Source: Planctomycetales bacterium (lineage in GTDB: Bacteria > 4484-113 > JAFGCY01). Taken from it: DNA of 32,000 bases. The notes under the pieces are model-generated. The model made no database searches. It had not been told where the DNA came from and was given only the letters and a program-made list of their open reading frames with translations. The stretch lies in assembly GCA_022646745.1 (NCBI GenBank), contig CP060262.1, positions 1,470,001 through 1,502,000 on the forward strand. The letters are read 5' to 3'. This document shows, piece by piece, positions 11,852 through 26,315 of the stretch. The position numbers and the translations under genes were made by a program. How positions within the stretch are numbered: the stretch's first letter is position 1; every line of letters begins with the position of its first letter.

Positions 11852-12757
11852 CTATGAACTGACGATGTTGGGCAGCAGCACCTCGGTCACGCGGCCGTAC
11901 TGCTCGCCGATGATGTCATTGATCTTGATGCGGATGTTGTCCTTGAACAGGTCCTTGCCGCTCGGGCGGATGAAGTCGTCGGACACCGTGCGGGCGATCT
12001 CGTCGATGATCATGTCGCGGATGCGCGACTCATTCTCCATCAGGCGGATCTCCATGATCGAGCGCGGCTTCTCGGGCAGCTCAGGCATCTCCGGCGGCGG
12101 GGCTTCCTTCGGGGCGCCGTGCATCGCAGGCACGACCTCCACCCCGTCCGTGCTGCCGCCGGCAGCGTTGACGACCTCCGTGGCTCCGTCAGCCGGCGCA
12201 GTGTGCTCCTCCAGGCCTTCCTCCGGTGGCAGCGAGGCATGTCCGCCCTTGCCTCCGTCCTTCGGGTTGCCTTCCTCGTCAAGCCCGAGCTGGTAGTTGC
12301 GGTAGAGCTGCACGCCGCTGTCGTACTTCTCCATCATCGCCTCGTAGACCTCCCACTCGTGGCGGTCATACAGGCTGTCAACCTCGAGGATCACGTTCAT
12401 CTGAACGAACTCATTGTCAGCGGTGTTCGTCTTGAACTCGCCGAGCTCGTACAGCACGCCCTCTGCCGGGACCACGAAGTTGTCAGGGGAGTCGCCATGC
12501 TCAGCATGCCCGTCGTCGGCATGCGCCGCGTCCTCCTCGCCCGGCACGGCCAGGGTGCCGCTGTCCTCGAGCTTCGACTTCAGCCCGTTGAGCTGCATGA
12601 ACAGCAGGGCGCTGAATGCGATGGCCGCCACCGCGACCGCCAGCGAGGCTATCATCATCAGCGGTGGCTTCCCGCCGCCACCGGCGGCCTTGCGGACCTT
12701 CTTCGCAGGCTTGCCCTCCTGCACCTCATCAACATCAATTGCCTGATTGTCAGCCAT
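11852..12757 (-). CDS. fliL: Flagellar basal-body-associated protein FliL, with a long acidic/Gly/Pro-rich internal insertion.
   Basis: The topology is a short basic N-terminus plus a single TM (PPLMMIASLAVAVAAIAFSALLF). FliL-like blocks are VLYELGEFKTNT, FVQMNVILEV and ESRIRDMIIDEI...LFKDNIRIKINDIIG...VTEVLLPNIV. It is adjacent to motAB. A GAGAGGG SD lies upstream of ATG 12757. Confidence 0.75.
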   Translation of the reverse strand: MADNQAIDVDEVQEGKPAKKVRKAAGGGGKPPLMMIASLAVAVAAIAFSALLFMQLNGLKSKLEDSGTLAVPGEEDAAHADDGHAEHGDSPDNFVVPAEGVLYELGEFKTNTADNEFVQMNVILEVDSLYDRHEWEVYEAMMEKYDSGVQLYRNYQLGLDEEGNPKDGGKGGHASLPPEEGLEEHTAPADGATEVVNAAGGSTDGVEVVPAMHGAPKEAPPPEMPELPEKPRSIMEIRLMENESRIRDMIIDEIARTVSDDFIRPSGKDLFKDNIRIKINDIIGEQYGRVTEVLLPNIVSS

Positions 12758-12825
12758 ACAAAATGCCCTCTCTTCCGGGGTTCAACTCAACAGTATCTAT
12801 AACCTGCAGTTTTCGAACATGTGTC

Positions 12826-13137
12826 CTATTTCGGTCCCGCTTTATAACCGTGGAATTCCTTCAGCGTGTCGTGGTCGAGGATGTACACGCGGTTCTCGCT
12901 CCTGATCCGGTTGCGGTACTTCGGCGTGTTCGGCCAGTACAGTTGCCGGCTGCTGTCAGCAACATAACGGTAGTCGTCAATCGTAGTGTGCCCGGTGCTG
13001 GCAACGTCCATGAAATTCTGGCCAAACCCGGTGCCTTCCCCAGCTGGGCAGCCCCAGGCCAGCAGCGCGACCAGGCAGACCGGCAGCAGCATGATGGCCA
13101 GCCTGAACCAGGTCCTGCCGTACCATGCCTCAGCCAT
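12826..13137 (-). CDS. Small exported protein or possible lipoprotein (~104 aa) of unknown function, between motB and fliL.
   Basis: ATG 13137 lies 1 nt after the motB stop (13139-13141). The N-terminal hydrophobic signal is WFRLAIMLLPVCLVALLAWGC, with a non-canonical lipobox-like LAWGC. The mature part is hydrophilic. The longer track ORF, running to 13224, overlaps motB. Confidence 0.6.
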   Translation of the reverse strand: MAEAWYGRTWFRLAIMLLPVCLVALLAWGCPAGEGTGFGQNFMDVASTGHTTIDDYRYVADSSRQLYWPNTPKYRNRIRSENRVYILDHDTLKEFHGYKAGPK

Positions 13138-13138
13138 C

Positions 13139-14071
13139 TCAGTGCCCCGCCCCCAGCTCGTGCACCGGTATCCCCGGGCTGGGCTGTGGTCCGACAAGCG
13201 GCCCGGACGGCTCCTCCGCGGCATCCACTTCCGGCTCGTTGTAGCCCCGCAGGATCACGATCTCCACCCGGCGGTTCGCGGCCCGGCCGTGCACGCTGTC
13301 ATTGCCCTGCAGCGGATGGGTGTCAGCATAGCCGGCCACACTGACCTTGTCCCGCGGCAGGCCGTTGGCGATCAGGAGCCTGGCAACGCTGGCTGCTCGT
13401 GCGGCGGACAGTTCCCAGTTGCTCGGGTAGCGCGCGCTGGCAATCGGCCGGTCATCCGTGTGGCCCAGCACCTCGACGGAATTCGGCAGGCGGTTCAGTT
13501 CGGCACCCAGTGCGGCCAGCACCTCACGGAAACCGGGCTTCATGTCGGCGCTGCCGCTGTCGAACATCAGCTGGTCGTCAAGGAATGTCAGCACGATTCC
13601 CCGCTCGGTGAAGCGCATGCTGACACGCTCATCGTGGCCGAACTCCTGCATGATCTGCTCACCCTGCTGGCGGGCCTCGTTGTCAAGGATGTCACGCAGC
13701 TTCTCCAGCAGTCCCTCATCCCCGTTCTCGCCCTCCATGATGCGGCGGAAGCGGAAGATCTGGATCGGGGTCTGGTGCTCCGGGAACAGGATCGAGGGCG
13801 ACTCTCCGCCACTGATCGTGCCGATGTCAATCGGTGTCGTACTGGCGTCCTCCCCGATGCTCACCTCGGGATCGAGCGATGTGCTCTTGCGGTTGGCACC
13901 CATGCCGTTCGTCATGCTCTCCGCCAGGGCCTTGAACTTCTCCATCTCGATGTTCGACATCGAGAACAGGATGATGAACACGACGGTGAGCAGCGTGATC
14001 ATGTCTGCATAGCTGATCAGCCAGCGCTCATCGCCGCCTTCATTGCCTTGTGGTGCCTGTGGTATGTACAC
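13139..14071 (-). CDS. motB: Flagellar stator protein MotB (OmpA-like peptidoglycan-binding C-terminus).
   Basis: The N-terminal region WLISYADMITLLTVVFIILF contains the conserved channel Asp. The OmpA-like C-terminus reads VEVLGHTDDRPI...SNWELSAARAASVARLL...VAGYADTHPL...NRRVEIVIL. GTG 14071 is preceded by GAGGAG at 6-nt spacing. Confidence 0.9.
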   Translation of the reverse strand: MYIPQAPQGNEGGDERWLISYADMITLLTVVFIILFSMSNIEMEKFKALAESMTNGMGANRKSTSLDPEVSIGEDASTTPIDIGTISGGESPSILFPEHQTPIQIFRFRRIMEGENGDEGLLEKLRDILDNEARQQGEQIMQEFGHDERVSMRFTERGIVLTFLDDQLMFDSGSADMKPGFREVLAALGAELNRLPNSVEVLGHTDDRPIASARYPSNWELSAARAASVARLLIANGLPRDKVSVAGYADTHPLQGNDSVHGRAANRRVEIVILRGYNEPEVDAAEEPSGPLVGPQPSPGIPVHELGAGH

Positions 14072-14097
14072 GTATCACTCCTCGCGTGCTTTCCCCG

Positions 14098-14898
14098 TCA
14101 GCCTTCCTGCTTGACGTGGGAACGCTCCTTGGGCGGCAGGAATGCCGCCAGCTTCTCCTGCACGATGCGCGGGTTGTCACCGGCCTGGATTGAGAGGATG
14201 CCCTCCACCATGATCTCGCGCACGAGCACCTCCTCCTTGCTGGCGTTCTTCAGCTTGGAGGCCCAGGGCAGGAACAGTGCATTGGCACTGCCCACACCGT
14301 AGAGCGTGGCGATGAAGGCCGCTGCCACCATTGGCCCCAGGGAGCCCGGATCTGACAGGTTTGACAGCACGAGCACGAGGCCCATCACCGTTCCCACGAT
14401 CCCGAAGGTCGGGGTGAAGCCCGCCATAGTCTCAAGGTAGGCCGCGCCGACATGGTGGCGCTCCTCCACGAACTTGATGTCCGTGTGCAGGATGTCCTTC
14501 ACCAGCTCGGTGTCGTTGCCGTCGATCACGAGCTGCAGCCCGTTGCGCAGGAAGGGATCCGTTTCGTTGTTGGCATCCTCCTCCAGCACCAGCAGGCCTT
14601 CGCGGCGCACCTTCTCGGAGAATTCCACGAACTTCTTGATCACCGGGATCGGGTCAACCTTGGGGCGCATGAAGCACTGCATGATCACCTTCCAGAGGTT
14701 GATCGAGGTCGCCAGCGGAAAGGCCACCATTGTCGCCCCGCCGGCCCCGCCGAACACGATGCAGGCAGCGCTGATCGCCATCAGCTGCGTCGGTGTCCCG
14801 CCCTCGATCGAGAAGCCTGCAAACACTCCGCCGAAGCAGATCAGTACTCCTACAAGGCTTGCAATATCCATTGCCGTGAGCCATCCCGTGGATTCCAC
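14098..14898 (-). CDS. motA: Flagellar stator protein MotA.
   Basis: It is a 4-TM protein of MotA length. Motifs: MDIASLVGVLICFGGVFAGF and AAAFIATLYGVGSANALFLPWASKLK. It lies directly upstream of motB. GTG 14898 has GGGAGG 4 nt upstream. An alternative start is ATG 14871. Confidence 0.9.
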   Translation of the reverse strand: MESTGWLTAMDIASLVGVLICFGGVFAGFSIEGGTPTQLMAISAACIVFGGAGGATMVAFPLATSINLWKVIMQCFMRPKVDPIPVIKKFVEFSEKVRREGLLVLEEDANNETDPFLRNGLQLVIDGNDTELVKDILHTDIKFVEERHHVGAAYLETMAGFTPTFGIVGTVMGLVLVLSNLSDPGSLGPMVAAAFIATLYGVGSANALFLPWASKLKNASKEEVLVREIMVEGILSIQAGDNPRIVQEKLAAFLPPKERSHVKQEG

Positions 14899-14934
14899 GA
14901 CGCCTCCCGGCAGCCGGCTCGAGCTGCCCGATGG

Positions 14935-14942
14935 ACTATACT
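14935..14942. promoter_or_regulatory. Overlapping divergent -10-like hexamers: TATACT (+, 14937-14942) for the 36-aa ORF and TATAGT (-, 14935-14940) for motA.
   Basis: The + hexamer is 6 nt from ATG 14949. The - hexamer is 36 nt from the motA GTG 14898, which has a GGGAGG SD. A CTGACG -35-like hexamer lies 16 nt upstream on the minus strand. Confidence 0.4.
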
Positions 14943-14948
14943 GATCGG

Positions 14949-15059
14949 ATGCGGATCGTCAGGAATACCCTGCTCTACATCCTGATCGCGGTCGTGGTTG
15001 CTGGGATATTTAACGGCTGCTGGTACGTGTTCTTCAGCAACTGGCGCCACTTGCTCTGA
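14949..15059 (+). CDS. Candidate 36-aa single-TM small membrane peptide. It is not in the ORF track because it is below the size cutoff.
   Basis: Hand translation gives MRIVRNTLLYILIAVVVAGIFNGCWYVFFSNWRHLL followed by TGA 15057-15059. Third codon positions are G/C-rich, like real genes here. A TATACT hexamer (14937-14942) lies exactly 6 nt upstream of the ATG. The same geometry is seen at plsY, deoC and mscS. There is no SD. Confidence 0.45.
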   Translation: MRIVRNTLLYILIAVVVAGIFNGCWYVFFSNWRHLL

Positions 15060-15148
15060 TTAGATGCATATTTGACCGGCGCTGGCCTCTGCGCGCATTC
15101 CCGTGCCGGATTGCTCCGGCGCAGTGCTTAACCAGGAATTGACAACGG

Positions 15149-17581
15149 TCAGTTCTGCTGGCGCAGGATCGCCGCGTGGTCGATCTTCAGCGGCTCAGCC
15201 AGCGGAGGTGTCTCAGGCATCTCCGTGCCATCCGGAACCGGCTGGCGCTGCGGGCCATCTTTCCACAACGGGCGCACCTGTTCAATGCTTCCGAACAGGT
15301 CACGCATCGCGTAGTAGATCGGCTTGATGCGGCCGTGGTACCTGATGTCCTCGACACCCCACTCGTCCCAGGTGTAGATCCCGCTCTTGCTGGTCAGGAT
15401 GCGGTTCCAGCCGTCGAACTGTGAGCTGAGGATGCTGTTGGGGTCCTCCGCATCATAGACATCCATCCCCGGCCAGACCGCGAGCGCATCACCGCGCGCG
15501 CTGGACATTGCCAGTCCCACGCCGATGCCGTCTGTCACGACGCTGGAATTCTTCGAGGGTTCATCGATGTCACTCTGAAGCACACGGCGCTGGTGCGGGC
15601 CGACGAATCCAAGCAGGATCCAGGGCATGCGGATCTCCACCACCTTGCTGTCGGGGTCGGAGTTCCAGATCGCCTGCTGGGTATAGCGTGGCTGGCCCTC
15701 GATCAGGGTGCCACGCGGCAGCGGGTTGAGCTTGAAGGACTGGGACGGGAAGAATGTCCCGTCGCGCCCGAGACGGTAGATGTTGGTTTCCACCCAGGGC
15801 TCGAACCAGCTCCAGCGGTTCTCCTCCATCTGCAGGTAGTGCGGCTTGGCCTCACCGAGCGAGATGGACTTTGATACCTCATCATTGAAGGGCCGCCAGA
15901 AGCGCCAGGTCTCGGTCTGGTACATATAGGCCTGGCCACTCTTGATCTGCACGACGGTCTCCAGGCCGCTGTCACTGAGGAACTTCAGCGGGCCGGGCCA
16001 GGCGAAGTTGCCTCCGAGGCGGTCAAGTACGTCGTAGCCGATGCTCAGCTCCGTCTTGTTGAAATCCCAGTCGTCAAAGTTGTCCAGCCTGATCCGCAGG
16101 TGGAACCAGCCTTCGTCGTGCATTGCCTTGACGCTGGTGATCACCGGAGCGTTGTCAGCGACGGCCACGGAATCGCCAGGCAGGATGCTGACATCCTCCC
16201 ATTCAGCGTCATTGCCGCTGAGCGTGTTGTTCGGTGCGCCCTCGCCGGGCAGTAGGGCAATCATGCCGTAGTTCTCCTCCGGGTCATACTGGTTGTACCA
16301 GAGCCGGCGGTCATCCCAGGGATCGTAGAAATCGGCCCAGATCCAGGTCTTCTTGAACCACTCATCAATCCAGGCGAACACGATCGCACCGGCGCAGCCG
16401 CTGTCCCAGATGTCATAGGTCAGCCGCTCCATGCCGTCAATCACCTCTTCCTCCGAGTGGCCGCCATGGTGCAGGCCCTGCTTCTGCTTGTGCGCCGGCA
16501 TCGGGCCATTAGGCAGTCCATACTCGGCGACCAGCAGCGGCATCGTGCCGTAATGCTCCTTCAGGTGGGTCAGGTAGCCGTAGTAGTTGCTGATCCCGAA
16601 GCGGTCCTTGCACAGGCTGTATTCGACCTCGTTGTCGAAGAAGTCCGGCCAGTACGGATAGATATGGTAAGAGGCATATACGCCGGCCTTGAAGTCAGGC
16701 GAGACGGTGAAGTCCTTAACGGTCATCTGGATCGTGTCACTGCTGAAGATGTCCACGCGGCCCTCATTCTCGGCCGAGTTGACGGACAGCTTGCTCTCGC
16801 TGACATGCTCCATCGGGTCAGTCACCGGCCATGAGCTGTAGGTGATCGGGTGCTGCTTGTTGTACTGGTCCATTTCATAGGACACGGCGTAGTCGCACAT
16901 CTTGGCCAGCCAGCAATCGATCGGCTGCTTGTCGATCGCGCTGATGTAGCGGCCCTTGTATTCACGGCGGTTGGTCAGCTCATGGAAGCGCTCAATGTCA
17001 TCCGGCTCCCACTCACGACCCCACAGCCAGGCCAGCAGCCAGGGGGACACATCTGCGTCATAGCGGCCGCCCGTCCAGCCCGGCCTGTCATCAAAGTTCG
17101 CATTTCCATAGACCAGGTCTACTGCATGACGCGAGTTGAGCTCAACTTCATCGTTGAACTTCTGGCCCCAGAAATCGTAGTCGGGGTCGGTCGGCGGCGT
17201 GACCCAGCAGCCCTGGATCAGGTAGATGATCTGGTCCGGGTAGGTGGTGTTGTGGTACCGCAACGCGCGGTAAACCTCGGGCGGAAGGATGGTGTAGAGG
17301 CGGATCACGTTGCAGTTCATGTCCGCCAGCTTCTTCAGCCAGTCACGAAAGAGCTGCTCGTCGTGTGGGAACTCACTGGGGTGCTTGCCGGGAAGTGCGG
17401 CAGACAGGCTCATGCCCTTCACGAAGATCGGTTTGTAGCTTCCATCCGGCTGGCGGATCTCGAGGAAGTTCTCGCCGGCACGAGTTGGCACGTCAGGAGC
17501 GGCCTGAGATTCAGTCGCAGCAAGCATGCAAATTGTCAACGCAATTGCGACAAGTTTCAAGTTCCGGGTTGTGAGAGACAC
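15149..17581 (-). CDS. Secreted large glycoside-hydrolase-like protein (~810 aa), with an N-terminal clan GH-A-type TIM-barrel and C-terminal beta-rich domains.
   Basis: GTG 17581 is preceded by GGAGGAG and opens a signal peptide (LKLVAIALTICMLAATESQA-AP). TIM-barrel hydrolase hallmarks are CNVIRLYTILPPEVY, LWGREWEP (an NE-like acid/base position) and PLLVAEYGLP (a nucleophile-like EYG). The first 33 codons of the track ORF, from ATG 17680, lie in AT-rich sequence and are probably non-coding. Confidence 0.65.
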   Translation of the reverse strand: MSLTTRNLKLVAIALTICMLAATESQAAPDVPTRAGENFLEIRQPDGSYKPIFVKGMSLSAALPGKHPSEFPHDEQLFRDWLKKLADMNCNVIRLYTILPPEVYRALRYHNTTYPDQIIYLIQGCWVTPPTDPDYDFWGQKFNDEVELNSRHAVDLVYGNANFDDRPGWTGGRYDADVSPWLLAWLWGREWEPDDIERFHELTNRREYKGRYISAIDKQPIDCWLAKMCDYAVSYEMDQYNKQHPITYSSWPVTDPMEHVSESKLSVNSAENEGRVDIFSSDTIQMTVKDFTVSPDFKAGVYASYHIYPYWPDFFDNEVEYSLCKDRFGISNYYGYLTHLKEHYGTMPLLVAEYGLPNGPMPAHKQKQGLHHGGHSEEEVIDGMERLTYDIWDSGCAGAIVFAWIDEWFKKTWIWADFYDPWDDRRLWYNQYDPEENYGMIALLPGEGAPNNTLSGNDAEWEDVSILPGDSVAVADNAPVITSVKAMHDEGWFHLRIRLDNFDDWDFNKTELSIGYDVLDRLGGNFAWPGPLKFLSDSGLETVVQIKSGQAYMYQTETWRFWRPFNDEVSKSISLGEAKPHYLQMEENRWSWFEPWVETNIYRLGRDGTFFPSQSFKLNPLPRGTLIEGQPRYTQQAIWNSDPDSKVVEIRMPWILLGFVGPHQRRVLQSDIDEPSKNSSVVTDGIGVGLAMSSARGDALAVWPGMDVYDAEDPNSILSSQFDGWNRILTSKSGIYTWDEWGVEDIRYHGRIKPIYYAMRDLFGSIEQVRPLWKDGPQRQPVPDGTEMPETPPLAEPLKIDHAAILRQQN

Positions 17582-17812
17582 GTGCTCCTCCGCGCAGCAG
17601 AGTATTGCCAGAATGATAAACCATGTATTAACAAGGTGCTTGCACTTAGTGTTGACAGTCAGGGAAAACTGACTGTTCATATTGTCACAAGTTAAACTTT
17701 AGTTAAACTAAGATTACATTATGTACAATCAAATCGTTTCACATATAAATATGTGTGTGGTAGAATCAGTCGCTCAAATCAGGGCACATACTATCGAAAG
17801 GTGATTTTGGGA
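17582..17812. promoter_or_regulatory. AT-rich divergent control region between the GH-like gene and the receiver/HEAT/synthase operon.
   Basis: GC drops sharply here. An extended -10 TGgTAGAAT lies at 17758-17766 on the + strand. Other elements are the tandem 9-mers at 17690-17709, the inverted repeat ACAGTCAG-N6-CTGACTGT at 17655-17676, the inverted repeat CACATAT-AA-ATATGTG at ~17740-17755, and TTGACA at 17652-17657. Confidence 0.5.
17690..17709. repeat. Perfect tandem direct repeat AGTTAAACT-TT-AGTTAAACT with an 11-bp period. Each unit is itself a 4-1-4 mini-palindrome.
   Basis: Read directly from the sequence. AGTT and AACT are reverse complements. The spacing equals about one helical turn, as expected for a dimer-of-dimers operator. 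Confidence 0.6.
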
Positions 17813-18226
17813 ATGGATTCTACCCCAGTCTCCAACCCGAAGATCCTTGTCGTACTCGAGGATGACAGTCTGTTCGGCATTCTGTCATACAAGCTGGAAC
17901 GGCAGGGCTTCAGGGTCAGTCGGGCCGTTGACGGCATTGAAGCGCTCGACCAGATGGAGCGGGAAACCTTTGACCTGTTGTTGATAGATATCCTCATCCA
18001 GAAACTGGATGGATTTCAAGTGATGAGGGAGATCCAGCAGCGCGAGAAGGTCAACGAACCCGGGGCGATGATCGTGATCAGCGCCCGGGAGGATGAGGAT
18101 GACATTCTCAATGCGTTCCGGCTGGGATGCGTTGATTACGTCACCATCCCGTTCAGCATCAACGTGCTGATTGCGAGACTGTACAACGCCCTGAAGCATG
18201 TCAGAGGTACTGCACAGGCAGGCTGA
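17813..18226 (+). CDS. Stand-alone CheY-like receiver domain protein (137 aa) lacking the conserved Lys.
   Basis: Receiver hallmarks are ILVVLEDD, the acceptor-position FDLLLIDILIQKLDG and MIVISAR. The KPF position reads TIPF (Ile codon 18146-18148). ATG 17813 has AAAGGTGA ~9 nt upstream. There is no output domain. Confidence 0.8.
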   Translation: MDSTPVSNPKILVVLEDDSLFGILSYKLERQGFRVSRAVDGIEALDQMERETFDLLLIDILIQKLDGFQVMREIQQREKVNEPGAMIVISAREDEDDILNAFRLGCVDYVTIPFSINVLIARLYNALKHVRGTAQAG

Positions 18227-18294
18227 CGTACTAATGTTGGAGTGACGGGCGGGGCATCGCCCGGAAATAGAAAGGATCGGAGCGGGGTTAACCA

Positions 18295-19434
18295 ATGTTT
18301 GCTGACAGCGTGCAATATCTGGTTGCGGGAATTTTCCTCAACTCAGCGCTGCTGTTCCTGATCATCGTCGTTCAGCGGATGATGTCGGCCAGCCACAACA
18401 CATGGGCCAGCAACCGCCGCGCCGAGCTCCTGCCCGTGTTCGCCCGTTACCTGAGCGGTGACAGCTCCATTGAGGAAATGATCTCCAGCATCGGCAACCA
18501 TGTCGACCTCGCTGAGGAAATGATCCTCGGGATGCTGCGCCAGCTGACCGGATCGGAACGCAAGAAGCTCCTGACCCTCGCTGACCGCCTGAAACTGCTC
18601 AACCGCACCGCCCGCCGTCTCAATAACTGGGACTGGCGCATCCGGGACATCGCCGCGATGCAGCTCGGTATCTACGGACTGAAGGAAACGGTGCCGATCC
18701 TCTCAAACAACCTGCGTGACAAGCGGATGGAAGTGCGCTTCACCGCCGCCCGCAGTATGGGAATGATCGGTACGCCGGAGGCCGGCACAGCTCTTTTGAG
18801 CATCCTCAACCGGCCCGAACTGATGGAAACCACCCGCCTGGTGGAAATCGTGCAGAAGATGCGCGGCCAGGCCATTGTCCCCCTCAGGCAGATGCTGGAG
18901 CACCAGGACTTCGCCCTCGAGTCCAAGCTGATGGCGATTGACCTGGTCGGAGACCTGCAGGAGTACCGGCTGGTTGACCAGCTGCACGAGGTGCTGCGTT
19001 CCTCTCATAAGGAAAAGGTGATTCGCACCATCAAGTCGATGGGCAAGATCGCCTCACCGCGCAGCATCCCCGAATTCCTGCGGCTCTCCAAGGACCGCTC
19101 CTGGGAGATCCGGGCCCAGGCCGTCAAGGCGCTGGGCACCATGCAGGTCAAGGACGGGTTGCCGATCCTGCGCGATGCGCTGTCCGACCCGAGCTACTGG
19201 GTGCGCCGCAACGCAGCCCAGTCGCTGGCGGCCTATGGACGCAGCGGTGGTGAGATCCTGCACCAGGCCCGGCGGGATGATGATGACTTCGCCAGGGATG
19301 TGGCCAACTACCAGCTCGAGAAATCAAACGGCAATCTCAGTCGCTTCTTCCAGGCTGACCAGCTGGAATCCGCAGCTTCCCCGCGCCGCGAGCGGGAGCT
19401 GCCGGGAAGCCGGGATACGGAGGGTGACAACTGA
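18295..19434 (+). CDS. Membrane-anchored HEAT-repeat (PBS-lyase-HEAT-like) protein.
   Basis: It has an N-terminal TM (YLVAGIFLNSALLFLIIVV). HEAT-like units recur, for example RIRDIAAMQLGIYGLKETVPIL, MEVRFTAARSMGMIGTPEAGTALL, SWEIRAQAVKALGTMQVKDGLPIL and YWVRRNAAQSLAAYG. Its stop TGA 19432-19434 overlaps the ATG of the downstream synthase. Confidence 0.75.
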   Translation: MFADSVQYLVAGIFLNSALLFLIIVVQRMMSASHNTWASNRRAELLPVFARYLSGDSSIEEMISSIGNHVDLAEEMILGMLRQLTGSERKKLLTLADRLKLLNRTARRLNNWDWRIRDIAAMQLGIYGLKETVPILSNNLRDKRMEVRFTAARSMGMIGTPEAGTALLSILNRPELMETTRLVEIVQKMRGQAIVPLRQMLEHQDFALESKLMAIDLVGDLQEYRLVDQLHEVLRSSHKEKVIRTIKSMGKIASPRSIPEFLRLSKDRSWEIRAQAVKALGTMQVKDGLPILRDALSDPSYWVRRNAAQSLAAYGRSGGEILHQARRDDDDFARDVANYQLEKSNGNLSRFFQADQLESAASPRRERELPGSRDTEGDN

Positions 19435-20873
19435 TGTTTGGCTATGATCTTGATAACAGCTATGCGATCATCGTTATCCTCTGGCTTTCAGGCTTTTTCA
19501 TCCTGTACACCCTCGGCCTGATCATTTCGTACATCGCATTCTTCCTGATCGGCATCATGAACCTCGGCCGCTACCGCCACTATGTGAATGTGGTGGACCT
19601 GCACGCCCTGTTCAAGACATCGCTGACCAAGCCCGTGAGCATCCTCTGTCCCGCCTACAACGAGGAGAAGGTGATCATGGAGTCGGTACGATCGCTGTTG
19701 ACACTGCATTACCCGCAGTTCGAGGTGATCGTGGTCAATGACGGCTCGAAGGACAACACCATGCAGGTGCTGATCGAGGCCTTCGACCTCGTTCCGGTGA
19801 GCAAGATCTACCAGCGCAAGATCGAGACCGAGCCGGTCAAGGCGATCTACGAAAGCCGCATGCACCCGAACCTTGTGGTGGTGGACAAGCCCAACGGCGG
19901 CAAGAGCAGCGCGCTCAATGTGGGCATCAACGTCAGCCAGTACCCTTACTTCTGCACGCTGGATGCCGATTCGATCCTTGACTCGGACGCCCTGCTGAAG
20001 ACGATGCGCCCCTTCATTGAGCATCCGGACACGATGATCGCCGTCGGCGGCGTGATCCGCGTGGCTAACAACTGCGTGGTGGACTACGGCCGAGTAAAGG
20101 AAGTGAACATCGCCACCAACTGGCTGGCGCTGGCACAGACGGTCGAGTACCTGATGACCTTCCTTTCCAGCCGCATCGCCTTTGCCCAGATGGGCGTGGT
20201 GCTGCTGATCTCCGGTGCCTTCGGGATGTTCCACAAGGAATCCGTGATTGAGGTCGGTGGATACCGCGAAGATACCATTGGTGAGGACATGGAGCTGGTG
20301 GTGCGCCTCAACCGCATCTTCAAGAAGAAGAACCAGGAATTCAAGATGTTCTTCAACCCGGACCCGGTCTGCTGGACCGAGGTGCCGGAGGACATGAAGA
20401 GCCTGGCCGGCCAACGCCGCCGCTGGCAGAAGGGCCTGGTGGACAGCCTGCGCTACAACGGCGAAATGATGTTCAACCCGCGCTTCGGCGCACTCGGCAT
20501 GTTCGGCATGCCCTATTACCTTATATTCGAGATGCTGGGCTGCATCGTCGAGCTGTTCGGCTATGTGCTGATCGTGATCTTCTGGTGGGCCGGTGTGCTC
20601 TCGCTGGAATGGATGCTGATGTTCATCCTGCTGAGCATGTCGCTGGGCTTCATGTTCACCGTGATCACGGTGCTCGTGGAGGAGCTCAGCTTCCACCGCT
20701 ACCAGCGGACATCCGACCTGTTCAAGCTGCTCTGGGGCGGCTTCCTGTACAACTTCGGCTTCCGCCAGATCAATGCGATCTGGCGACTGCAGGCCATGCT
20801 TGAATACCTCGGCGGCTTCCGCAAGCTGTGGGGGGCGATCCGGCGCGGTGGATTCCGCACCGCGGGATCCTGA
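19434..20873 (+). CDS. Processive family-2 glycosyltransferase (PgaC/IcaA/NodC-type membrane-embedded polysaccharide synthase).
   Basis: Motifs: ILCPAYNEEKVI...VIVVNDGSKDNT, GGKSSALN, LDADSILD, GEDMELVVRL and QRRRWQKG (Q-x-x-R-W). TM helices flank the domain at both the N- and C-terminus. The 479-aa length leaves no room for a PilZ domain. A GGAGGGTGA SD lies upstream. Confidence 0.88.
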   Translation: MFGYDLDNSYAIIVILWLSGFFILYTLGLIISYIAFFLIGIMNLGRYRHYVNVVDLHALFKTSLTKPVSILCPAYNEEKVIMESVRSLLTLHYPQFEVIVVNDGSKDNTMQVLIEAFDLVPVSKIYQRKIETEPVKAIYESRMHPNLVVVDKPNGGKSSALNVGINVSQYPYFCTLDADSILDSDALLKTMRPFIEHPDTMIAVGGVIRVANNCVVDYGRVKEVNIATNWLALAQTVEYLMTFLSSRIAFAQMGVVLLISGAFGMFHKESVIEVGGYREDTIGEDMELVVRLNRIFKKKNQEFKMFFNPDPVCWTEVPEDMKSLAGQRRRWQKGLVDSLRYNGEMMFNPRFGALGMFGMPYYLIFEMLGCIVELFGYVLIVIFWWAGVLSLEWMLMFILLSMSLGFMFTVITVLVEELSFHRYQRTSDLFKLLWGGFLYNFGFRQINAIWRLQAMLEYLGGFRKLWGAIRRGGFRTAGS

Positions 20874-20896
20874 TCCACGGGAGCAAGTGACTGGAT

Positions 20897-22393
20897 ATGA
20901 GTGACCTGATCAAGGGAGACAATCTGGAGGAGCAGCAGCCGGGTGGAACGGCCACTGCCACGCTCGTGCCGCCACCGGACCGCAAGGCCCGGCACCGGCG
21001 CGAGGCTGAAGGCATTGGCAAGCCGCGCAAGAAGCCCTTCCTGGTGGCCTTCGTCACCAGCCGGCGCCTGCATACGATCCTGATCCTGGCGCTGATCATC
21101 TACCTCTGCGTACTGATCCCGCACCTGTTCTGGGAGCGGACGCCGGACATCCCGCTCAAGATGATGATCGTGGACAAGACGGTGCCTTTCCAGGACTACC
21201 GTGAGCATCGCGGCCTGTTCTGGCTGCTGACCAACAACAAGTTCATTGACCCGACCAAGCAGACGGACAACCGCTTCTATGCGGAGGACCTGGACTACAC
21301 GGGCTTCTACCCGCCGCCGGATGACAGGATCCTCGCGACTCCTGAGCAGGAAAACGCGATGTTCTCGGAGGAGTTCAACCCGAACTTCGTCGGGCCGGTG
21401 CCAAGCAGCAGCAATCCCACGGAGGATGCCCGCCTCAAGAATGATGTGCATTGGCGCTTCGATTACATCGACTCCGCCGATCTCGCTGATCGTGACCTGC
21501 TGTACATCTGTGACAGCTATGGCGTATACAGCGCTGACTACTGGCAGTTCCGCAGCGATTACTGGGGCGACAACATCGCACATACGATTTACTCCCCGAA
21601 GATCTACGGAGGCATGAAACCTGAGGAGATCACCGCAATCGAGGGCTTCCTCGACCAGGGTGGACGCACCATCTGCGCTGAATTCAATACCCTGGCATCC
21701 CCGACGGATGAGGAACTGCGGGACCGGCTGGAGGAGATCTTCGGGGTGGACTGGACCCACTGGATCGGTCGTTACTTCGTGGACTTCGGCGATGTCACTG
21801 ATGTGCCCTGGTGGCTGTTTGAGTTGTACAAGCAGAAGCACGGCAAGGACTGGGACCTGACAGGATCAGGTTACCTGCTCTGCAAGGATGGCGAGGACGA
21901 ATTCTTCGTGCTGACGGACGCGGAGGACGTGGCTCCGGGCGGCATGCTGTTCGTGCCCCGTACCGACTACATGGAACTGGACGTGATGCAGGGCAGCCGC
22001 CCGAGCACCTTCACCTACTGGTTTGACGTCGTGACCGTGCGCCCGGATCCCTCCGTCGAGATCCTCGCGGACTTCGAGTTCAAGCTGACGGACAGCGGCA
22101 AGGACAAGATGCGCCGCCACGACCTGCCGCTGGTGATCCCGGCCATCGTGCGCAAGCAGACCCATTACAACAGCTACTACATGGCTGGTGAGATGACGGA
22201 GTTCGGCAAGGCGATGGGCCCGGCGGACACCAAGCTGACCCTGCAGATCAACCGCAGCTTCTACGGCCGCGAGGTGCAGGGTTCGACCGGTTTCCCGTTC
22301 TGGCACAGTTCCTACCCGGTGGTGACCAACATCCTGCGCAAGGAAGCCGACCTGATCTCACCGATCAAGGTGCCGGTCTATCCCTTCCGCTGA
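20897..22393 (+). CDS. Single-pass membrane protein of unknown function (498 aa), with a basic cytoplasmic N-terminus and a large extracytoplasmic domain.
   Basis: It starts 23 nt after the synthase stop, on the same strand. It has one hydrophobic segment (LHTILILALIIYLCVLIPHLF) followed by ~420 aa rich in aromatic and acidic residues. I recognise no motif. Coding-type codon bias is seen throughout. Confidence 0.7.
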   Translation: MSDLIKGDNLEEQQPGGTATATLVPPPDRKARHRREAEGIGKPRKKPFLVAFVTSRRLHTILILALIIYLCVLIPHLFWERTPDIPLKMMIVDKTVPFQDYREHRGLFWLLTNNKFIDPTKQTDNRFYAEDLDYTGFYPPPDDRILATPEQENAMFSEEFNPNFVGPVPSSSNPTEDARLKNDVHWRFDYIDSADLADRDLLYICDSYGVYSADYWQFRSDYWGDNIAHTIYSPKIYGGMKPEEITAIEGFLDQGGRTICAEFNTLASPTDEELRDRLEEIFGVDWTHWIGRYFVDFGDVTDVPWWLFELYKQKHGKDWDLTGSGYLLCKDGEDEFFVLTDAEDVAPGGMLFVPRTDYMELDVMQGSRPSTFTYWFDVVTVRPDPSVEILADFEFKLTDSGKDKMRRHDLPLVIPAIVRKQTHYNSYYMAGEMTEFGKAMGPADTKLTLQINRSFYGREVQGSTGFPFWHSSYPVVTNILRKEADLISPIKVPVYPFR

Positions 22394-22427
22394 ACGGAAT
22401 TAGCTCCGAGTCCATCCATATTTGAAG

Positions 22428-22453
22428 CGCGGACGGGTGTCCGCGGGTAGAAT
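22428..22453 (+). promoter_or_regulatory. GC hairpin CGCGGAC-GGGT-GTCCGCG (22428-22445) followed by GGTAGAATC (-10-like TAGAAT at 22448-22453), upstream of the deacetylase gene.
   Basis: Read directly from the sequence. There is no U-tract after the hairpin. The same GGTAGAATC 9-mer occurs at 17759-17767, upstream of the receiver gene. Confidence 0.35.
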
Positions 22454-22471
22454 CTCCAGCCGACAACGCCT

Positions 22472-23575
22472 ATGAGACAGACACTTTCCCTGTTATTGCT
22501 GATGTTCCTGCTGGGTGGCACAGCCCTGGCCCAAGGAGACATCATCGTGATCCCGCATAAGGACCAGCTTCCCCAGGCCGACGAGCGCTGGAGGCCGAAG
22601 CCGGAAATCTGCCGCTGGTACAACGGCGCGGAAGGAGCTGTCAGCCTGACCTTTGATGACGGCTCACTGGACCACTGGGAGCGGGGCATGCCGCTGTGGG
22701 ATAAGTACGGCTGGAAGGTCACGCTGGGCATCGTCTCCACCACCATCGTCAAGCGCAAGGGCTGGAAGGAACAGCTGCAGCAGGCCTTTGACGATGGCCA
22801 TGAGATTGCCAACCATTCAAAGACCCACCTCAACATGGCGGAAAGCAGCGAGGAAGTGGTGCGTGATGAGATCGGCACCTGCCATAAGTTCCTCATTGAC
22901 AACATCGAGGGCCTGGACCAGGTGGATACCCTGATCTACCCATATGAGCAGTACCACTACGGCAATTTCCACACCGCTGCCGAGTTCGGATACATGTTCG
23001 CCCGCAGCGGCCCGCAGGAGCGGGAGGACATCGCCCAGCGCAACTGCTCCGCCAACCCGCCGCTGATGCACCTCTACAGCTGGGCCAACCAGGACATCCT
23101 GCCGATGTGGATGTGGAACAGCACGACGGACCTTGCCATCAGCAAGCAGGGCTGGATGATCGAGCAGTGCCACGGCATCGGTGAGGCGGGCGAGCCCGGT
23201 GTGGGCTGGAGCCCGCGCCCCTATGACGACTTCGTCGAGCACTACGAGTACCTGGCATCCTTCGGGGACCGGGTCTGGGTGGCCCCGATCAGGAATGTGG
23301 CCCGCTACATGCTGGAGAGCCGGCAGTTCACGATGGAGCTTGTCGATTTCGATAAGGACTACATGATTGCGAAGATCAGCCAGCTGCCGGATTACCAGAA
23401 TTACTGGGACGTGATCTCCGTGCAGTGCGCCGTCCCGGCTGACTGGGAGCAGGCCGAGGTGCTGGCCGACGGCAAGCCGGTCAGCTCCGTGCGCCGCAGC
23501 GGCGACATGCTGATTGCCAACATCCCGACCGGCACCACTGAAGTCGTGATGCGCAAGCTCAACCAGAAGCAATGA
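22472..23575 (+). CDS. Secreted polysaccharide deacetylase (carbohydrate esterase family 4-like).
   Basis: The signal peptide is LLLLMFLLGGTALAQG. CE4 motif 1 is LTFDDGSLD and motif 2 is HEIANHSKTH. It sits next to the GT2 synthase locus. Confidence 0.8.
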   Translation: MRQTLSLLLLMFLLGGTALAQGDIIVIPHKDQLPQADERWRPKPEICRWYNGAEGAVSLTFDDGSLDHWERGMPLWDKYGWKVTLGIVSTTIVKRKGWKEQLQQAFDDGHEIANHSKTHLNMAESSEEVVRDEIGTCHKFLIDNIEGLDQVDTLIYPYEQYHYGNFHTAAEFGYMFARSGPQEREDIAQRNCSANPPLMHLYSWANQDILPMWMWNSTTDLAISKQGWMIEQCHGIGEAGEPGVGWSPRPYDDFVEHYEYLASFGDRVWVAPIRNVARYMLESRQFTMELVDFDKDYMIAKISQLPDYQNYWDVISVQCAVPADWEQAEVLADGKPVSSVRRSGDMLIANIPTGTTEVVMRKLNQKQ

Positions 23576-24612
23576 GGACCCTGCTCGCCAGCCTGATCCT
23601 GATCGCCTGCCTGAACGGTGGCAGGGCGCTGGCTGCCAACAGCACACCAGACCCCAACCGGCTGGTGGGCTGCTACATCTCGATGGGCTGCTGGAACCTG
23701 CTGCAGGTGAATGAACAGTTCAGCGAGCTGTCCGACAGCGGTGTCAATTTCGTGATTGACTACGCGCTGCAGTGGCCGGAAGGCCCGGCTGACCGTGACA
23801 ACTTCGATGCCTACATGGCGATTGCCAGGCGCGAGGGGATCAGCATCGGCTACAGCCTGTTCAATGCCCTCGAAGGTGCCACCCCGCGCACATCCTCCGT
23901 GCAGGTTGCCAGGGCGCTGGCCGAGGTGGAGGCCCTGCGCAACGAGGAGCAGATCGGGGCCTGGTACGTGCATGATGAGATCCTGCCGATGCTCAGCGGG
24001 GTGGACGGCACGGAGAAGTACAGCCTGTCGCTTGGGCAGATGCGCGACCTGTACCAGAGCATCCGCCGCATCGACCCCGACCGGCCGCAGATCTGCGTCT
24101 GGAACCAGCTCCCGGACCGCCATGAGATGAACCGGCGCTTTGACAGCCGCAACTATCCGCACGGCACCCCGGACTACCTGCAGCATGATGAGCAGTTCGA
24201 GCAGAGCATGCGCAGCATGATCCGCGACTGCTGCGACTGGGTGATGGTGGACTGCTACCCCGTCGGTGCCCACTGGCTGGATGATGGCCACAGCATCGAG
24301 GCGATCAGCTACGAGGTGGACGCACTTGTCCGCCGTGCCAATGAGCTGCGCCGCCCCTCGCAGCCGCTGATCCTCGTGTTCCAGAGCTTCGACTGGCGGA
24401 TGTACGGCAAGGGCAGCAATTCAGCCAGCTTCCCGAGCCTGGAGCAGATGCGGGCGATGGTGCAGGCCGGCTTCAATGCCGGTGCTGACAACGTGCTGGC
24501 CTACTCCTGGTTTGACCTCGTGCGCAAGGTGGACGGGCGCAGCCCGGCGGGGCAGCAGCGCTGCCTGGCGGACCTCAAGCAGATCCTGGCGGAGCTCGGG
24601 TCACGCCACTGA
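23572..24612 (+). CDS. Secreted or lipid-anchored TIM-barrel glycoside-hydrolase-like protein (346 aa).
   Basis: ATG 23572 overlaps the deacetylase stop (ATGA). The signal peptide has a possible lipobox (LILIAC) or an ALA-AN cleavage site. The alternating beta/alpha pattern includes AWYVHDEI (an acid/base-like DE) and LILVFQSFDW. The family assignment is uncertain. Confidence 0.55.
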   Translation: MRTLLASLILIACLNGGRALAANSTPDPNRLVGCYISMGCWNLLQVNEQFSELSDSGVNFVIDYALQWPEGPADRDNFDAYMAIARREGISIGYSLFNALEGATPRTSSVQVARALAEVEALRNEEQIGAWYVHDEILPMLSGVDGTEKYSLSLGQMRDLYQSIRRIDPDRPQICVWNQLPDRHEMNRRFDSRNYPHGTPDYLQHDEQFEQSMRSMIRDCCDWVMVDCYPVGAHWLDDGHSIEAISYEVDALVRRANELRRPSQPLILVFQSFDWRMYGKGSNSASFPSLEQMRAMVQAGFNAGADNVLAYSWFDLVRKVDGRSPAGQQRCLADLKQILAELGSRH

Positions 24613-24621
24613 AGCTGCGGC

Positions 24622-24630
24622 TGTCATAAT
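24622..24630 (+). promoter_or_regulatory. Extended -10-like element TGtCATAAT upstream of the TPR-esterase gene.
   Basis: It lies 22 nt upstream of ATG 24653, with GGGGAG/GGAGG in between. Confidence 0.3.
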
Positions 24631-24652
24631 GCTCCATGGGGGAGTGGAGGAA

Positions 24653-25807
24653 ATGAAGATGATCCACCGGATTGCCATGCTGGCGCTGCTTGCCGCCCTG
24701 CTGTCACTGTCAGAGGCGCATGCGCAGTGGGAATACCTGAGCCCGGACGAGATTGACCCGCTGGCCGGGGACGCGCTCACCGTTCTGGACAACGACCGGG
24801 CCAGTTATGTGCTGATGGGCCTGCAGTATGAGGACCAGGGCGAACTGGAACAGGCTGCGGCCTGCTACATCGCGGCCCTGCAGTCAGATGCCACGAACTT
24901 CGAGGTGCTGCTGCGCCTGGCGGGCTGCTATGGCCAGCTCGGGCGGGCCAGCCTGGCCTCTGATGCACTGCGCCTCGCCCAGCAGGCCGGCCTGCGCAAC
25001 ATCAGCGCCCGGATTGGTGACCCGCGTTTTGACAACGTCCGGGATGACTACAGCTTCCGGATGGCGGCTGATGTGCTGCGCGGCCGCGAGCTGCGCTACC
25101 GCGAACAGATGGGGGATACCATGCTGGTGCCGATGGGCAGCATGGGCAGCGTGCGCTACTTCCTGCCGGATGACTTTGACAGCGAACTGGAATATACCCT
25201 CGTGGTGATGCTGCACGGGGCAACGGGCACACCGGAGAACATCGCGGCCTGGCGGCAGCAGATGCCGCACAGGAACTTCATCATGGCGGCCCCGGCGGCG
25301 GCCTATCCGGTATTCAGCGACCACCAGGATTCCCGTATCTGGTGGCCTGGCGCCATCGGTGACGAGCTGCGCATGCAGTACCTCGAGCAGAATGCGGAAT
25401 ACGTCGGCAATGTGGTTGCCAGGATGCGGGAGGATTTCCGCATCGGCCCGGTGGTGCTGGCCGGCTTCAGCCAGGGCGGGATGCTGGCGAGCTACTGTGC
25501 CCTGACCCGCAGCGGGCAGTATGACGCGCTGGCCTGCTTCAGCACAACGCTTGCGGTGGATGACGAACTGCCGCGCCGTGAGCTGGACTTCCCGGTGTTC
25601 TCCGGCCATGGCCTGCGCGACAGCGCAGTGCTGCCGGCTGAAAGCGAGATGCTGGCTGACTTCCTCGAGGAACAGGGCTGCCCGTTGACCCGCTTCAGCT
25701 TTGATGGCGGCCATGAGATCAGCGTGCAGGAGCTGGAGGCTTTCTGTGACTGGCTGGATGCGCTTGGACCGGCCGGCGGGAACACCGCAGGCATGGGCAA
25801 TGTCTGA
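24653..25807 (+). CDS. Secreted TPR-repeat protein fused to an alpha/beta-hydrolase (carboxylesterase/phospholipase-type) domain.
   Basis: The signal peptide is IAMLALLAALLSLSEAHA. The TPR-like segment is LQYEDQGELEQAAACYIAALQSDATNFEVLLRLAGCYGQLG. Hydrolase motifs are VVMLHGATGTPEN, the nucleophile elbow GFSQGG, then GHGLRDS and DGGHEI. GGGGAG/GGAGG lies upstream. An alternative start is ATG 24659. Confidence 0.72.
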   Translation: MKMIHRIAMLALLAALLSLSEAHAQWEYLSPDEIDPLAGDALTVLDNDRASYVLMGLQYEDQGELEQAAACYIAALQSDATNFEVLLRLAGCYGQLGRASLASDALRLAQQAGLRNISARIGDPRFDNVRDDYSFRMAADVLRGRELRYREQMGDTMLVPMGSMGSVRYFLPDDFDSELEYTLVVMLHGATGTPENIAAWRQQMPHRNFIMAAPAAAYPVFSDHQDSRIWWPGAIGDELRMQYLEQNAEYVGNVVARMREDFRIGPVVLAGFSQGGMLASYCALTRSGQYDALACFSTTLAVDDELPRRELDFPVFSGHGLRDSAVLPAESEMLADFLEEQGCPLTRFSFDGGHEISVQELEAFCDWLDALGPAGGNTAGMGNV

Positions 25808-25853
25808 ATAGTGTCACGGAATTCCAGCGGATTCCGGGATAGAATCAAACAGG

Positions 25854-26315
25854 ATGCGAAGCCTCTACCTGATAGCTGCGATAGTCTCCACGGCATTCGT
25901 GCTGGTCAATGGACCGCGCCTGCCCTGGATTGACGCCGCCGACACAGTGGTGATCTTCAAGGGCTTCAACCACGGCATCATCGGCTTCAGCTACATGTGC
26001 AGCTGGGCACTCGTGCTCGGCGGGATCTACCAGCTGCTGCTGGGCGTGGTCTACTGGGACATGGATACGAGCGACCATGAACGCTGGCAGTTCACGCTGG
26101 AAAGCAGCGGCACCAGCCGCTTCCTCGCAATCGCCGGCGTCGTCTGCCTGATCCTGGGCGGGATGTGGCTGTACTTCACCTTCAGCAATGACTTCCACCG
26201 CTGGCCGGCCGGGGTGATGAGCAGCGTCGCTGCCATATTCACCTGCCTGCTGTACTGGATGGCCTTCCCGCTGATGGAGCAGGTGGGCATGGACCGCGAG
26301 GAGATCGGAGTCTAG
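25854..26315 (+). CDS. Hypothetical 4-TM membrane protein (153 aa).
   Basis: It has four hydrophobic segments and coding-type GC3 bias. A TAGAAT hexamer (25840-25845) lies 8 nt upstream of the ATG. I recognise no family motif. Confidence 0.6.
   Translation: MRSLYLIAAIVSTAFVLVNGPRLPWIDAADTVVIFKGFNHGIIGFSYMCSWALVLGGIYQLLLGVVYWDMDTSDHERWQFTLESSGTSRFLAIAGVVCLILGGMWLYFTFSNDFHRWPAGVMSSVAAIFTCLLYWMAFPLMEQVGMDREEIGV

Follow-up and report, generated by a model that had tools for sequence, protein, structure and literature searches.

Synthase-dependent exopolysaccharides such as cellulose, poly-N-acetylglucosamine (PNAG), alginate and Pel are central to biofilm biology, and to our knowledge only a handful of architectures for making them are known. 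Whether a Planctomycetales bacterium encodes a further one is the question raised by a group of genes in a 32,000-nucleotide stretch of its DNA (contig CP060262.1, positions 1,470,001 to 1,502,000 of the forward strand), referred to here as the window. A first-pass annotation, made from the letters of the window, had marked positions 15149–25807 as a candidate undescribed synthase-dependent exopolysaccharide system lacking a recognisable cyclic di-GMP (c-di-GMP) receptor. All eight genes that it listed were recovered as open reading frames (ORFs) with exactly the same boundaries and with the domains ascribed to them. They comprise a + strand series encoding a receiver (REC), a HEAT-repeat protein (HEAT), a GT2 glycosyltransferase, a 498-residue protein (U498), a CE4-family deacetylase or esterase, a 346-residue protein (U346) and a TPR-containing esterase, together with a divergently transcribed gene for an 843-residue protein (GH843). 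We consider it probable, at roughly 70%, that these genes specify a synthase-dependent system, so far uncharacterised, for polysaccharide secretion with REC, HEAT, GT2, U498 and GH843 as its core, and this system looks real, undescribed and widespread.

The synthase, its proposed extracytoplasmic partners and the conserved core

GT2 is encoded at 19434–20873 (+) and matches the Pfam families Glycos_transf_2 and Glyco_tranf_2_3 and, weakly, Chitin_synth_2. The motifs DAD, GEDMEL and QRRRW that had been read from it before are intact on alignment: LDADS (D177, D179), GEDMEL at 283–288 (E284, D285) and QRRRW at 327–331 (Q327, R328, R330, W331) are invariant in 22 sequences, comprising 21 family members and E. 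coli PgaC. Hydrophobic segments at residues 6–47, 241–266 and 361–418 give the protein clusters of transmembrane segments at its N- and C-termini, and positions 12–419 of the family profile match residues 40–433 of the Chlorella-virus hyaluronan synthase (HAS), a better match than that to the BcsA core, which is also found. These features place GT2, as a predicted processive synthase embedded in the membrane, in the BcsA/HAS/PgaC superfamily. The best NCBIfam model is TIGR03937 (PgaC_IcaA), with 141.8 bits against a cut-off of 422.3, followed by the weaker scores of NodC (38 bits) and CelA (35 bits). At one third of the cut-off GT2 is not a PgaC/IcaA equivalog; it shares 24% identity with E. 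coli PgaC over 372 residues, and members of its family have two insertions that PgaC lacks, while their C-terminal tail, WGxMxRKG, is conserved.

The conservation of the genes around this synthase was followed in 82 loci, namely the best 80 of 506 U498 relatives, taken with 10-kb flanks, and three others, with a near-identical genome (L004) excluded. All are anchored on U498 homologues, and all were searched by tblastn and phmmer using the eight window proteins. A GT2 of the same subfamily is found in 67 of the 82 loci, with a HEAT homologue directly upstream of it in 57 of these 67 and a REC-containing ORF upstream of HEAT in 48, while 59 of the 82 hold a GH843 homologue that is either adjacent to U498 or fused with it. 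The core genes stand in the same order in at least five phyla (Bacillota, Bacteroidota, Acidobacteriota, Myxococcota and Planctomycetota-labelled metagenome-assembled genomes (MAGs)), and because the same order recurs across phyla the arrangement is not a matter of chance. Independent gene calls combined with Pfam agree with this picture in the sister MAG (L001), Niabella drilacis, Lentibacillus saliphilus and two more distant MAGs, as well as in an Acidobacteriota MAG whose GH843 has N-terminal TPRs and in a contig bearing a GT2::U498 fusion. The comparison of gene neighbourhoods across genomes, put forward with the first-pass annotation, thus bears it out in that the core genes are co-conserved in related and distant loci. 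The conserved core consists of REC, HEAT, GT2 and U498, with GH843 usually present, and the rest is lineage-specific.

The operon as originally drawn is therefore not the conserved unit, for the genes encoding CE4, U346 and the TPR-esterase are lineage-specific, and the divergent GH843 belongs to the core and is often fused to U498. CE4 is present only in the near-identical genome; the 81 other loci lack it, and so does the sister genome, in which the remaining genes share 70–90% identity with those of the window. Homologues of U346 are limited to close relatives (L001 and L006/L089), as are those of the esterase, which has a homologue in the sister genome. Niabella drilacis (L002, 5224–11176; FMZO01000017.1) has two other genes inserted between GT2 and U498, one encoding a protein of the Sulfatase Pfam family, which we take to be that of E. 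coli BcsG, and one a TPR protein with a YaiO outer-membrane barrel; upstream in the same locus lie an 864-residue protein with Glyco_hydro_2_C and GT2 matches and an ABC transporter.

U498 (20897–22393, +) is, as had been noted, a single-pass protein, with its one transmembrane segment at about residues 55–81. It has no match in Pfam or NCBIfam, and sequence and profile searches of the PDB returned nothing. A basic cytoplasmic N-terminal tail precedes the transmembrane segment and a large extracytoplasmic domain follows it; the AlphaFold2 (AF2) model, with a predicted local distance difference test score (pLDDT) of 87.8, comprises an N-terminal helix and transmembrane segment, an alpha/beta domain, a beta-rich domain and a C-terminal helix. 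A word-indexed protein search gave 102 homologues, none with a Pfam domain, and a pattern scan with one genome per GTDB species gave the 506 relatives mentioned above. Fifteen residues are invariant in 70 sequences (H104, D206, Y208, G209, G238, G239, E262, N264, P269, W289, R292, P304, W306, W375 and Y428), which at about 30% identity suggests that they form a defined active site or binding site. Moreover, U498 occurs fused to either of its neighbours: one 829-residue protein (P0079) is a GT2::U498 fusion, and in 43 loci U498::GH843 forms a single ORF of about 1080 residues (1082 in Priestia megaterium). We propose U498 as a novel family of synthase partner positioned at the outer face of the membrane.

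GH843 is encoded on the opposite strand at 15149–17680 and is likewise without a Pfam or NCBIfam match. The first-pass annotation had described it as a secreted, divergent GH-A-like protein of 810 residues, and both points hold: the modelled fold is that of clan GH-A, and 810 residues follow from an alternative GTG start at 17581, the full ORF having 843. Searching the PDB by sequence yielded nothing useful, and the family profile was uninformative against the PDB, being flooded by TPR matches because many homologues carry N-terminal TPRs. An AF2 model built on 40 homologues reached a mean pLDDT of 87 and contains C-terminal beta-sandwich domains. In Foldseek it matched the GH157 endo-beta-1,3-glucanase (E 4.5e-14), then GH2 glucuronidases and galactosidases and the GH17 laminarinase, at a probability of 1.00 and with low TM-scores of 0.31–0.48. 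Two glutamates are invariant in 56 homologues, including the Bacillaceae fusions; in the model E223 comes just after strand 215–220 (beta4) and E386 lies within strand 382–387 (beta7), the positions predicted for the acid/base and nucleophile of a GH-A enzyme. On the basis of the model we assign GH843 as a clan GH-A (beta/alpha)8 glycoside-hydrolase-like protein. Its family has more than 1374 homologues and is often fused to TPR in Gemmatimonadota and Acidobacteriota, most of the distant homologues bearing N-terminal TPR repeats. The gene for one such TPR-GH843 protein, in a Gemmatimonadetes MAG (L084, 8990–12700), adjoins those of an esterase, a TPR protein and a two-component system, and no GT2 gene lies less than 10 kb away.

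Receiver, HEAT protein and control region

The gene preceding that of HEAT encodes the receiver (17753/17813–18226, +; Pfam Response_reg 68 bits), which has 137 residues when read from ATG 17813. It keeps the acidic pocket (E16, D17 and D18), the phospho-acceptor D59 (in LLLID) and S90, while the conserved receiver lysine (K109 in CheY) is replaced by Ile112 in TIPF. Only the window and its sister show this change, and 73 of 81 related REC domains keep the lysine. The description of the receiver as degenerate thus applies to the lysine only; with the acidic pocket, the Asp and the Ser/Thr position intact, it is no more than mildly degenerate.

HEAT itself (18295–19434, +; HEAT_2 110 bits) has one N-terminal transmembrane segment at residues 5–32, and the HEAT repeats are predicted to be cytoplasmic because positively charged residues come after this segment. 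Its stop codon overlaps the start of the GT2 gene by 1 nt, as that of CE4 overlaps the ATGA start of U346. A word-indexed search with the HEAT protein gave just 18 matches and no fusions. From one lineage to the next the constant feature is a receiver domain directly before HEAT, in forms that include REC alone and REC-REC. In Bacillaceae the gene in this place usually encodes some 540 residues in the order Hpt-REC-GGDEF-REC, and among 25 such proteins (503–553 residues) 20 have an exact GG[DE]EF and 21 an RxxD motif; the receiver of the window is matched best by their C-terminal REC. Priestia megaterium (L048, NZ_CP058255.1) provides an example, with an Hpt-REC-GGDEF(GGEEF, RxxD)-REC gene at 5927–7543 and, after the operon, a HAMP-GAF-PAS hybrid histidine kinase at 13598–16471. 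This predicted gene content implies a dedicated phosphorelay and local c-di-GMP synthesis for the synthase in Bacillaceae.

The claim that the system has no c-di-GMP receptor must accordingly be divided. In the window it stands, for Pfam and motif searches of the eight proteins found no PilZ, GGDEF/I-site or MshEN, and a motif search found no BldD-type c-di-GMP sites among them. For the family as a whole it may not carry over, in that many Bacillaceae operons begin with a GGDEF gene, and in Bacilli c-di-GMP is probably involved as well, through a receptor not yet recognised. The related suggestion that regulation runs through the receiver and HEAT fits the synteny of this pair with the synthase across phyla, and on that synteny we propose the pair as a cytoplasmic switch for GT2.

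The divergent genes for GH843 and the receiver are separated by an intergenic region at 17681–17812 that has 33% GC against 63% for the window, in line with the shared AT-rich control region reported earlier. A promoter scan found in it a sigma-70-like site for the receiver operon, TTCACA-17-TGgTAGAAT at 17738–17766, which matches at 10 of 12 positions and has an extended −10 element, TGGTAGAATC, that is kept in the sister genome. ATG 17813 is the most likely start of the receiver since it lies downstream of this promoter-like site with its sister-conserved −10. The intergenic direct repeat AGTTAAACT, present twice, was considered as an operator candidate and dropped because the sister genome does not preserve it. 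Four copies of the 9-mer GRTAGAATC are present in the window, against an expected 0.14. Its three + strand copies (17759–17767, 22446–22454 and 25838–25846) stand just upstream of the receiver, of CE4 and of a 153-residue ORF described below, and judged by their sequence they are like repeated extended −10 boxes; the fourth copy (17816–17824, −) is inverted, overlaps the ATG of the receiver and forms an inverted repeat with the first.

Polymer, proposed mechanism and alternative readings

The identity of the polymer must be approached through the synthase and the accessory enzymes. For CE4 and the TPR-esterase, as for the membrane HEAT protein, the Pfam domains named by the first-pass annotation were found. 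CE4 (22472–23575, +) is secreted, has an extra C-terminal domain and scores 62.7 bits against Polysacc_deac_1 (cut-off 23.1); its TFDD and HSKTH motifs follow a signal peptide, and its nearest relatives in the PDB, all weak, are acetyl-xylan esterases at the top and peptidoglycan and chitin deacetylases. U346 (23572–24612, +), also secreted and without a Pfam match, belongs to a rare family with 46 cluster representatives at E ≤ 1e-3 among 1.8 billion proteins, whose profile matches GH158 at E 2.5e-10. Its WYVHDE motif (D135-E136) aligns to the 'NE' acid/base motif of clan GH-A ('GNE' in GH158, 'NNE' in GH42), and in the region where the nucleophile is expected no polar residue other than the invariant Q271 is conserved. 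U346 is thus probably the GH-like barrel it had been taken for, of GH-A type and by family profile closest to GH158. Comparison of U346 with the GH843 family by hhalign found no relation, so that the two are not recent paralogues. The esterase (24476/24653–25807, +) combines TPR_11 with an alpha/beta-hydrolase domain (Abhydrolase_2 52.5 bits) that has a GFSQGG elbow and matches carboxylesterases of the PDB at E 1e-9; ATG 24653 is its most likely start because it provides a signal peptide, MKMIHRIAMLALLAALLSLSEAHA. Judged by hydropathy and sequence, GH843, CE4, U346 and the esterase all have signal-peptide-like N-termini, and together with the predicted topologies of HEAT and U498 this is consistent with the proposed system.

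GT2 leans to synthases of N-acetylhexosamine (HexNAc) polymers, and both GH-A-like proteins lean to beta-1,3-glucanases (GH157, GH158 and GH17). A first alternative to an undescribed polymer is accordingly a divergent PNAG (Pga/Ica-type) or chitin-like system, making a homopolymer of N-acetylglucosamine that CE4 partly de-N-acetylates. PgaC_IcaA is by far the best model for GT2 (141.8 bits, well over NodC and CelA), the identity to E. coli PgaC and the weak Chitin_synth_2 matches point the same way, and the GT2 profile fits hyaluronan synthase better than BcsA. CE4 is present with TFDD and HSxxH intact, and in U346 an Asp occupies the position of the Asn by which GH-A enzymes normally make contact with the 2-OH. 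Against this, the TIGR03937 score is a third of its cut-off of 422, there are no PgaA or PgaD homologues, and the match to PgaB is marginal (E 0.005). CE4 is missing from the sister genome and the 81 other loci and its closest solved relatives include O-acetyl esterases, while the families closest to both GH-A-like proteins are those of beta-1,3-glucanases. We therefore rate such a system as rather doubtful. The partially deacetylated PNAG- or chitin-like polymer of the first-pass annotation is weakened by the same three facts concerning CE4 conservation, the O-acetyl-xylan esterases among its relatives and the glucanase-like GH-A proteins, and as a call it is weak because it rests on the non-conserved CE4. 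A HexNAc polymer is modestly favoured.

An unlikely second alternative is a beta-glucan, for instance beta-1,3-linked or mixed and possibly O-acetylated, from which CE4 and the esterase would remove O-acetyl groups. The GH843 model does best match the GH157 endo-beta-1,3-glucanase (E 4.5e-14) and the GH17 laminarinase, GH158, to which U346 has its best PDB match (E 2.5e-10), is an endo-beta-1,3-glucanase family, the top PDB matches of CE4 are acetyl-xylan esterases, and the locus encodes a carboxylesterase-type hydrolase. Yet likeness to the clan GH-A fold, here at TM-scores of 0.31–0.48, does not fix specificity, and GT2 is nearer to HexNAc synthases than to cellulose synthase.

Whatever its sugar, the chain would be handled by the proposed system as follows. 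GT2 would polymerise a UDP-sugar and thread the growing chain through its own transmembrane channel, as its membership of the BcsA/HAS/PgaC superfamily and its intact motifs suggest. On the cytoplasmic face HEAT would bind the synthase and relay the state of the receiver, phosphorylated or otherwise switched, and so start or stop synthesis, a relay suggested by strict synteny and translational coupling. In Bacillaceae the receiver is the C-terminal domain of the Hpt-REC-GGDEF-REC protein, and in P. megaterium the operon is followed by the hybrid histidine kinase. At the channel exit, on the outer face, U498 would recruit GH843, for which the GT2::U498 and U498::GH843 fusions argue, and GH843 would trim or process the nascent chain in the manner of BcsZ, PgaB-C, PelA or PslG in known systems. 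In the UBP7-like lineage of the window CE4, U346 and the TPR-esterase would tailor the polymer in the periplasm, probably by removing acetyl or acyl groups.

A third alternative places the product in the envelope, as a periplasmic or envelope-attached glycan (resembling an osmoregulated periplasmic glucan (OPG), or wall-associated) rather than as an exported matrix polymer. Neither the locus nor its surroundings encode an outer-membrane porin or a secretin, the tailoring enzymes are all periplasmic with signal peptides, and in Bacillaceae the GH domain is tethered to the membrane through U498. This reading is distinctly unlikely given that the Niabella operon has its TPR protein with a YaiO-type outer-membrane barrel, that Acidobacteriota and Gemmatimonadota fuse TPR to GH843 as in export scaffolds, and that the linkage of GGDEF and hybrid histidine kinase genes in Bacillaceae is typical of biofilm matrix control. 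That the genes are unrelated neighbours forming no functional system is hardly credible: internal promoter-like GRTAGAATC elements do suggest more than one transcription unit and the accessory genes do differ between genomes, but the core order in at least five phyla, two kinds of fusion and the stop/start overlaps speak otherwise, and conserved synteny together with the fusions contradicts it.

The synthase-dependent secretion system with a REC, HEAT, GT2, U498 and GH843 core, which we prefer, has several observations weighing against it. No outer-membrane porin is encoded in the locus, though the organism, with its LolCE-like genes, looks diderm, and Pfam annotation of the flanking window genes found no kinase gene near the locus. 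The receiver of the window is without the conserved lysine, which bears on its role as a switch, and synteny is the sole ground on which REC and HEAT are given that role. Foldseek matches of the U498 model are weak and ThuA-like or GATase1-like (TM-score ≤ 0.44), too weak for a ThuA/GATase1-like function to be assigned. Some homologues of GH843, too, are encoded with no GT2 nearby, or in another part of the genome. Lone U498 homologues with no GT2 nearby are found as well, in Sericytochromatia, Acidobacteria, Thermococci and Methanomicrobia MAGs (L043, L014, L067 and L044), among genes for MMPL, a PLP enzyme, PAP2, a peptidase S9 and transporters. Since these neighbours are unrelated genes, the U498 family has a role beyond the synthase system, and we rejected the notion that U498 is strictly a synthase partner, 15 of the 82 loci being without a GT2 match (some of the contigs are short).

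A fuller reading that joins these elements is tentative, and we hold it as possible rather than probable. In it REC-HEAT would be a new post-translational switch, in which the HEAT solenoid docks on GT2 and reads a phosphorylatable receiver, replacing c-di-GMP-PilZ or PgaD; the HEAT protein or the GT2 tail of Bacillaceae would be an unrecognised c-di-GMP receptor; U498, linking the synthase with a GH-A glycosidase, would represent a periplasmic co-polymerase or modifying enzyme of a new class; and the product would be an undescribed polymer.

Flanking genes and relation to known systems

The locus is embedded in ordinary chromosome, with nuo genes, a PP2C phosphatase, an NHL-repeat protein and fliL-motB-motA upstream and DeoC, MscS and LolCE-like genes downstream. 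The source of the window is an uncultured bacterium, or a near-identical relative of one, that GTDB assigns to UBP7 (MAG HKST-UBA01) and that some NCBI records place under Planctomycetales. Downstream of the esterase a 153-residue hydrophobic protein without a Pfam match (25854–26315, +), preceded closely by GATAGAATC, is the candidate last gene of the locus. The sister genome has a gene of equal length in the same post-esterase position, and because position and length are kept there the protein may provide the locus with an additional membrane subunit. Between this ORF and DeoC the sister genome has an additional gene for 781 residues without a Pfam match (14252–16597, −), which the window lacks. 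On the other side fliL, motB and motA (11852–14898, −) directly adjoin the GH843 gene, as they do in the sister genome (1014–4021), an adjacency that may be coincidental synteny or a link between motility and matrix. Among the nuo genes the NuoJ-like domain takes up only residues 199–344 of a 348-residue ORF (2439–3485, +) and the NuoK-like domain only residues 124–231 of a 232-residue ORF (3272–3970, +); the starts of both are probably over-extended, failing which the N-terminal extensions are unusual.

The first-pass annotation had set the accessory genes apart from the Pga, Bcs and Nfr layouts, and no homology was detected on comparing U498, GH843, REC, HEAT and U346 with E. coli PgaA/B/D, BcsB/C/E/G/Z and NfrA/YbcH, except through TPR repeats. 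With Pga/Ica the locus shares a membrane GT2 of the same broad subfamily, PgaC being the nearest characterised relative, a periplasmic CE4 in the genome of the window, and glycoside-hydrolase activity, here predicted, tied to the machinery. It differs in having neither a PgaD-type partner (E. coli PgaD against the locus by phmmer and family profiles, E ≥ 0.18) nor a PgaB-type CE4-GH153 protein (CE4 against PgaB gives E 0.005 and 5.4 bits), and in matching PgaA only through TPR repeats, with no porin. Its GT2 has the two family insertions, its partners are REC, HEAT, U498 and the GH-A enzyme, and its CE4 is not conserved. The logic of Bcs is similar, with a processive GT2 that has its own channel, a single-pass periplasmic partner (BcsB, as compared with U498), a dedicated periplasmic glycosidase (BcsZ, as compared with GH843) and, in some versions, TPR scaffolding. 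However, GT2 of the window is without PilZ and reaches 13 bits against BcsA, U498 against BcsB gives E > 1, and GH843, of clan GH-A and not GH8, gives E 0.07 against BcsZ. The anchor of BcsB is C-terminal, whereas that of U498 is N-terminal.

The B. subtilis YdaJKLMN and Listeria PssA-E/PssZ systems resemble the Bacillaceae versions found here as Gram-positive operons with a GT2, large extracytoplasmic proteins, a glycosidase and a GGDEF protein. Their GGDEF protein is a degenerate, membrane-bound I-site receptor, whereas the Bacillaceae one found here is a soluble Hpt-REC-GGDEF-REC protein with an exact GG[DE]EF in 20 of 25 cases and is accompanied by an extra HEAT. The lack of any Pfam match for U498 and GH843 speaks against kinship with YdaL, YdaN, YdaK, PssD or PssE only as far as Pfam families cover these. 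NfrB/NfrA/YbcH is likewise built on a GT2 synthase, with few accessory proteins and an outer-membrane partner that contains TPRs, but GT2 of the window is without MshEN and matches NfrB at E 0.003 (6.2 bits), and the likeness to NfrA/YbcH is confined to TPRs. As for hyaluronan synthase, chitin synthase and NodC, the GT2 profile matches the Chlorella-virus enzyme over its full length, and GT2 itself matches Chitin_synth_2 and NodC weakly, but those synthases function with neither a REC-HEAT module nor periplasmic partners of their own. By analogy the general logic of the locus matches that of synthase-dependent systems, with its GT2 channel, single-pass partner, glycosidase, TPR scaffolds and tailoring esterases, while on each defining accessory feature tested it falls outside Pga/Ica, Bcs and Nfr. 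No description of the REC-HEAT-GT2 module was found in the full-text literature searched, which was mostly without subscription journals and so gives absence of evidence only; within that literature the system can still be called undescribed. The Zetaproteobacteria sfz cluster (PMC8250860), examined as a prior description, is unrelated to the module.

Two of the core proteins, U498 and GH843, thus have neither a Pfam family nor a homologue of solved structure, and neither was found in the literature searched; the control module, a receiver with a HEAT-repeat protein, is unlike the usual c-di-GMP receptors. The module is not restricted to an uncultured MAG. Reckoned by its U498 relatives it recurs in 506 or more species-level genomes from several phyla. 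It is present in Priestia megaterium and in many Neobacillus and Metabacillus isolates, which makes it tractable for genetics, polymer chemistry and reconstitution. If the regulatory model is true, processive synthases would have a second mode of gating, one based on phosphorylation, and a new c-di-GMP receptor in Bacilli might also come to light.

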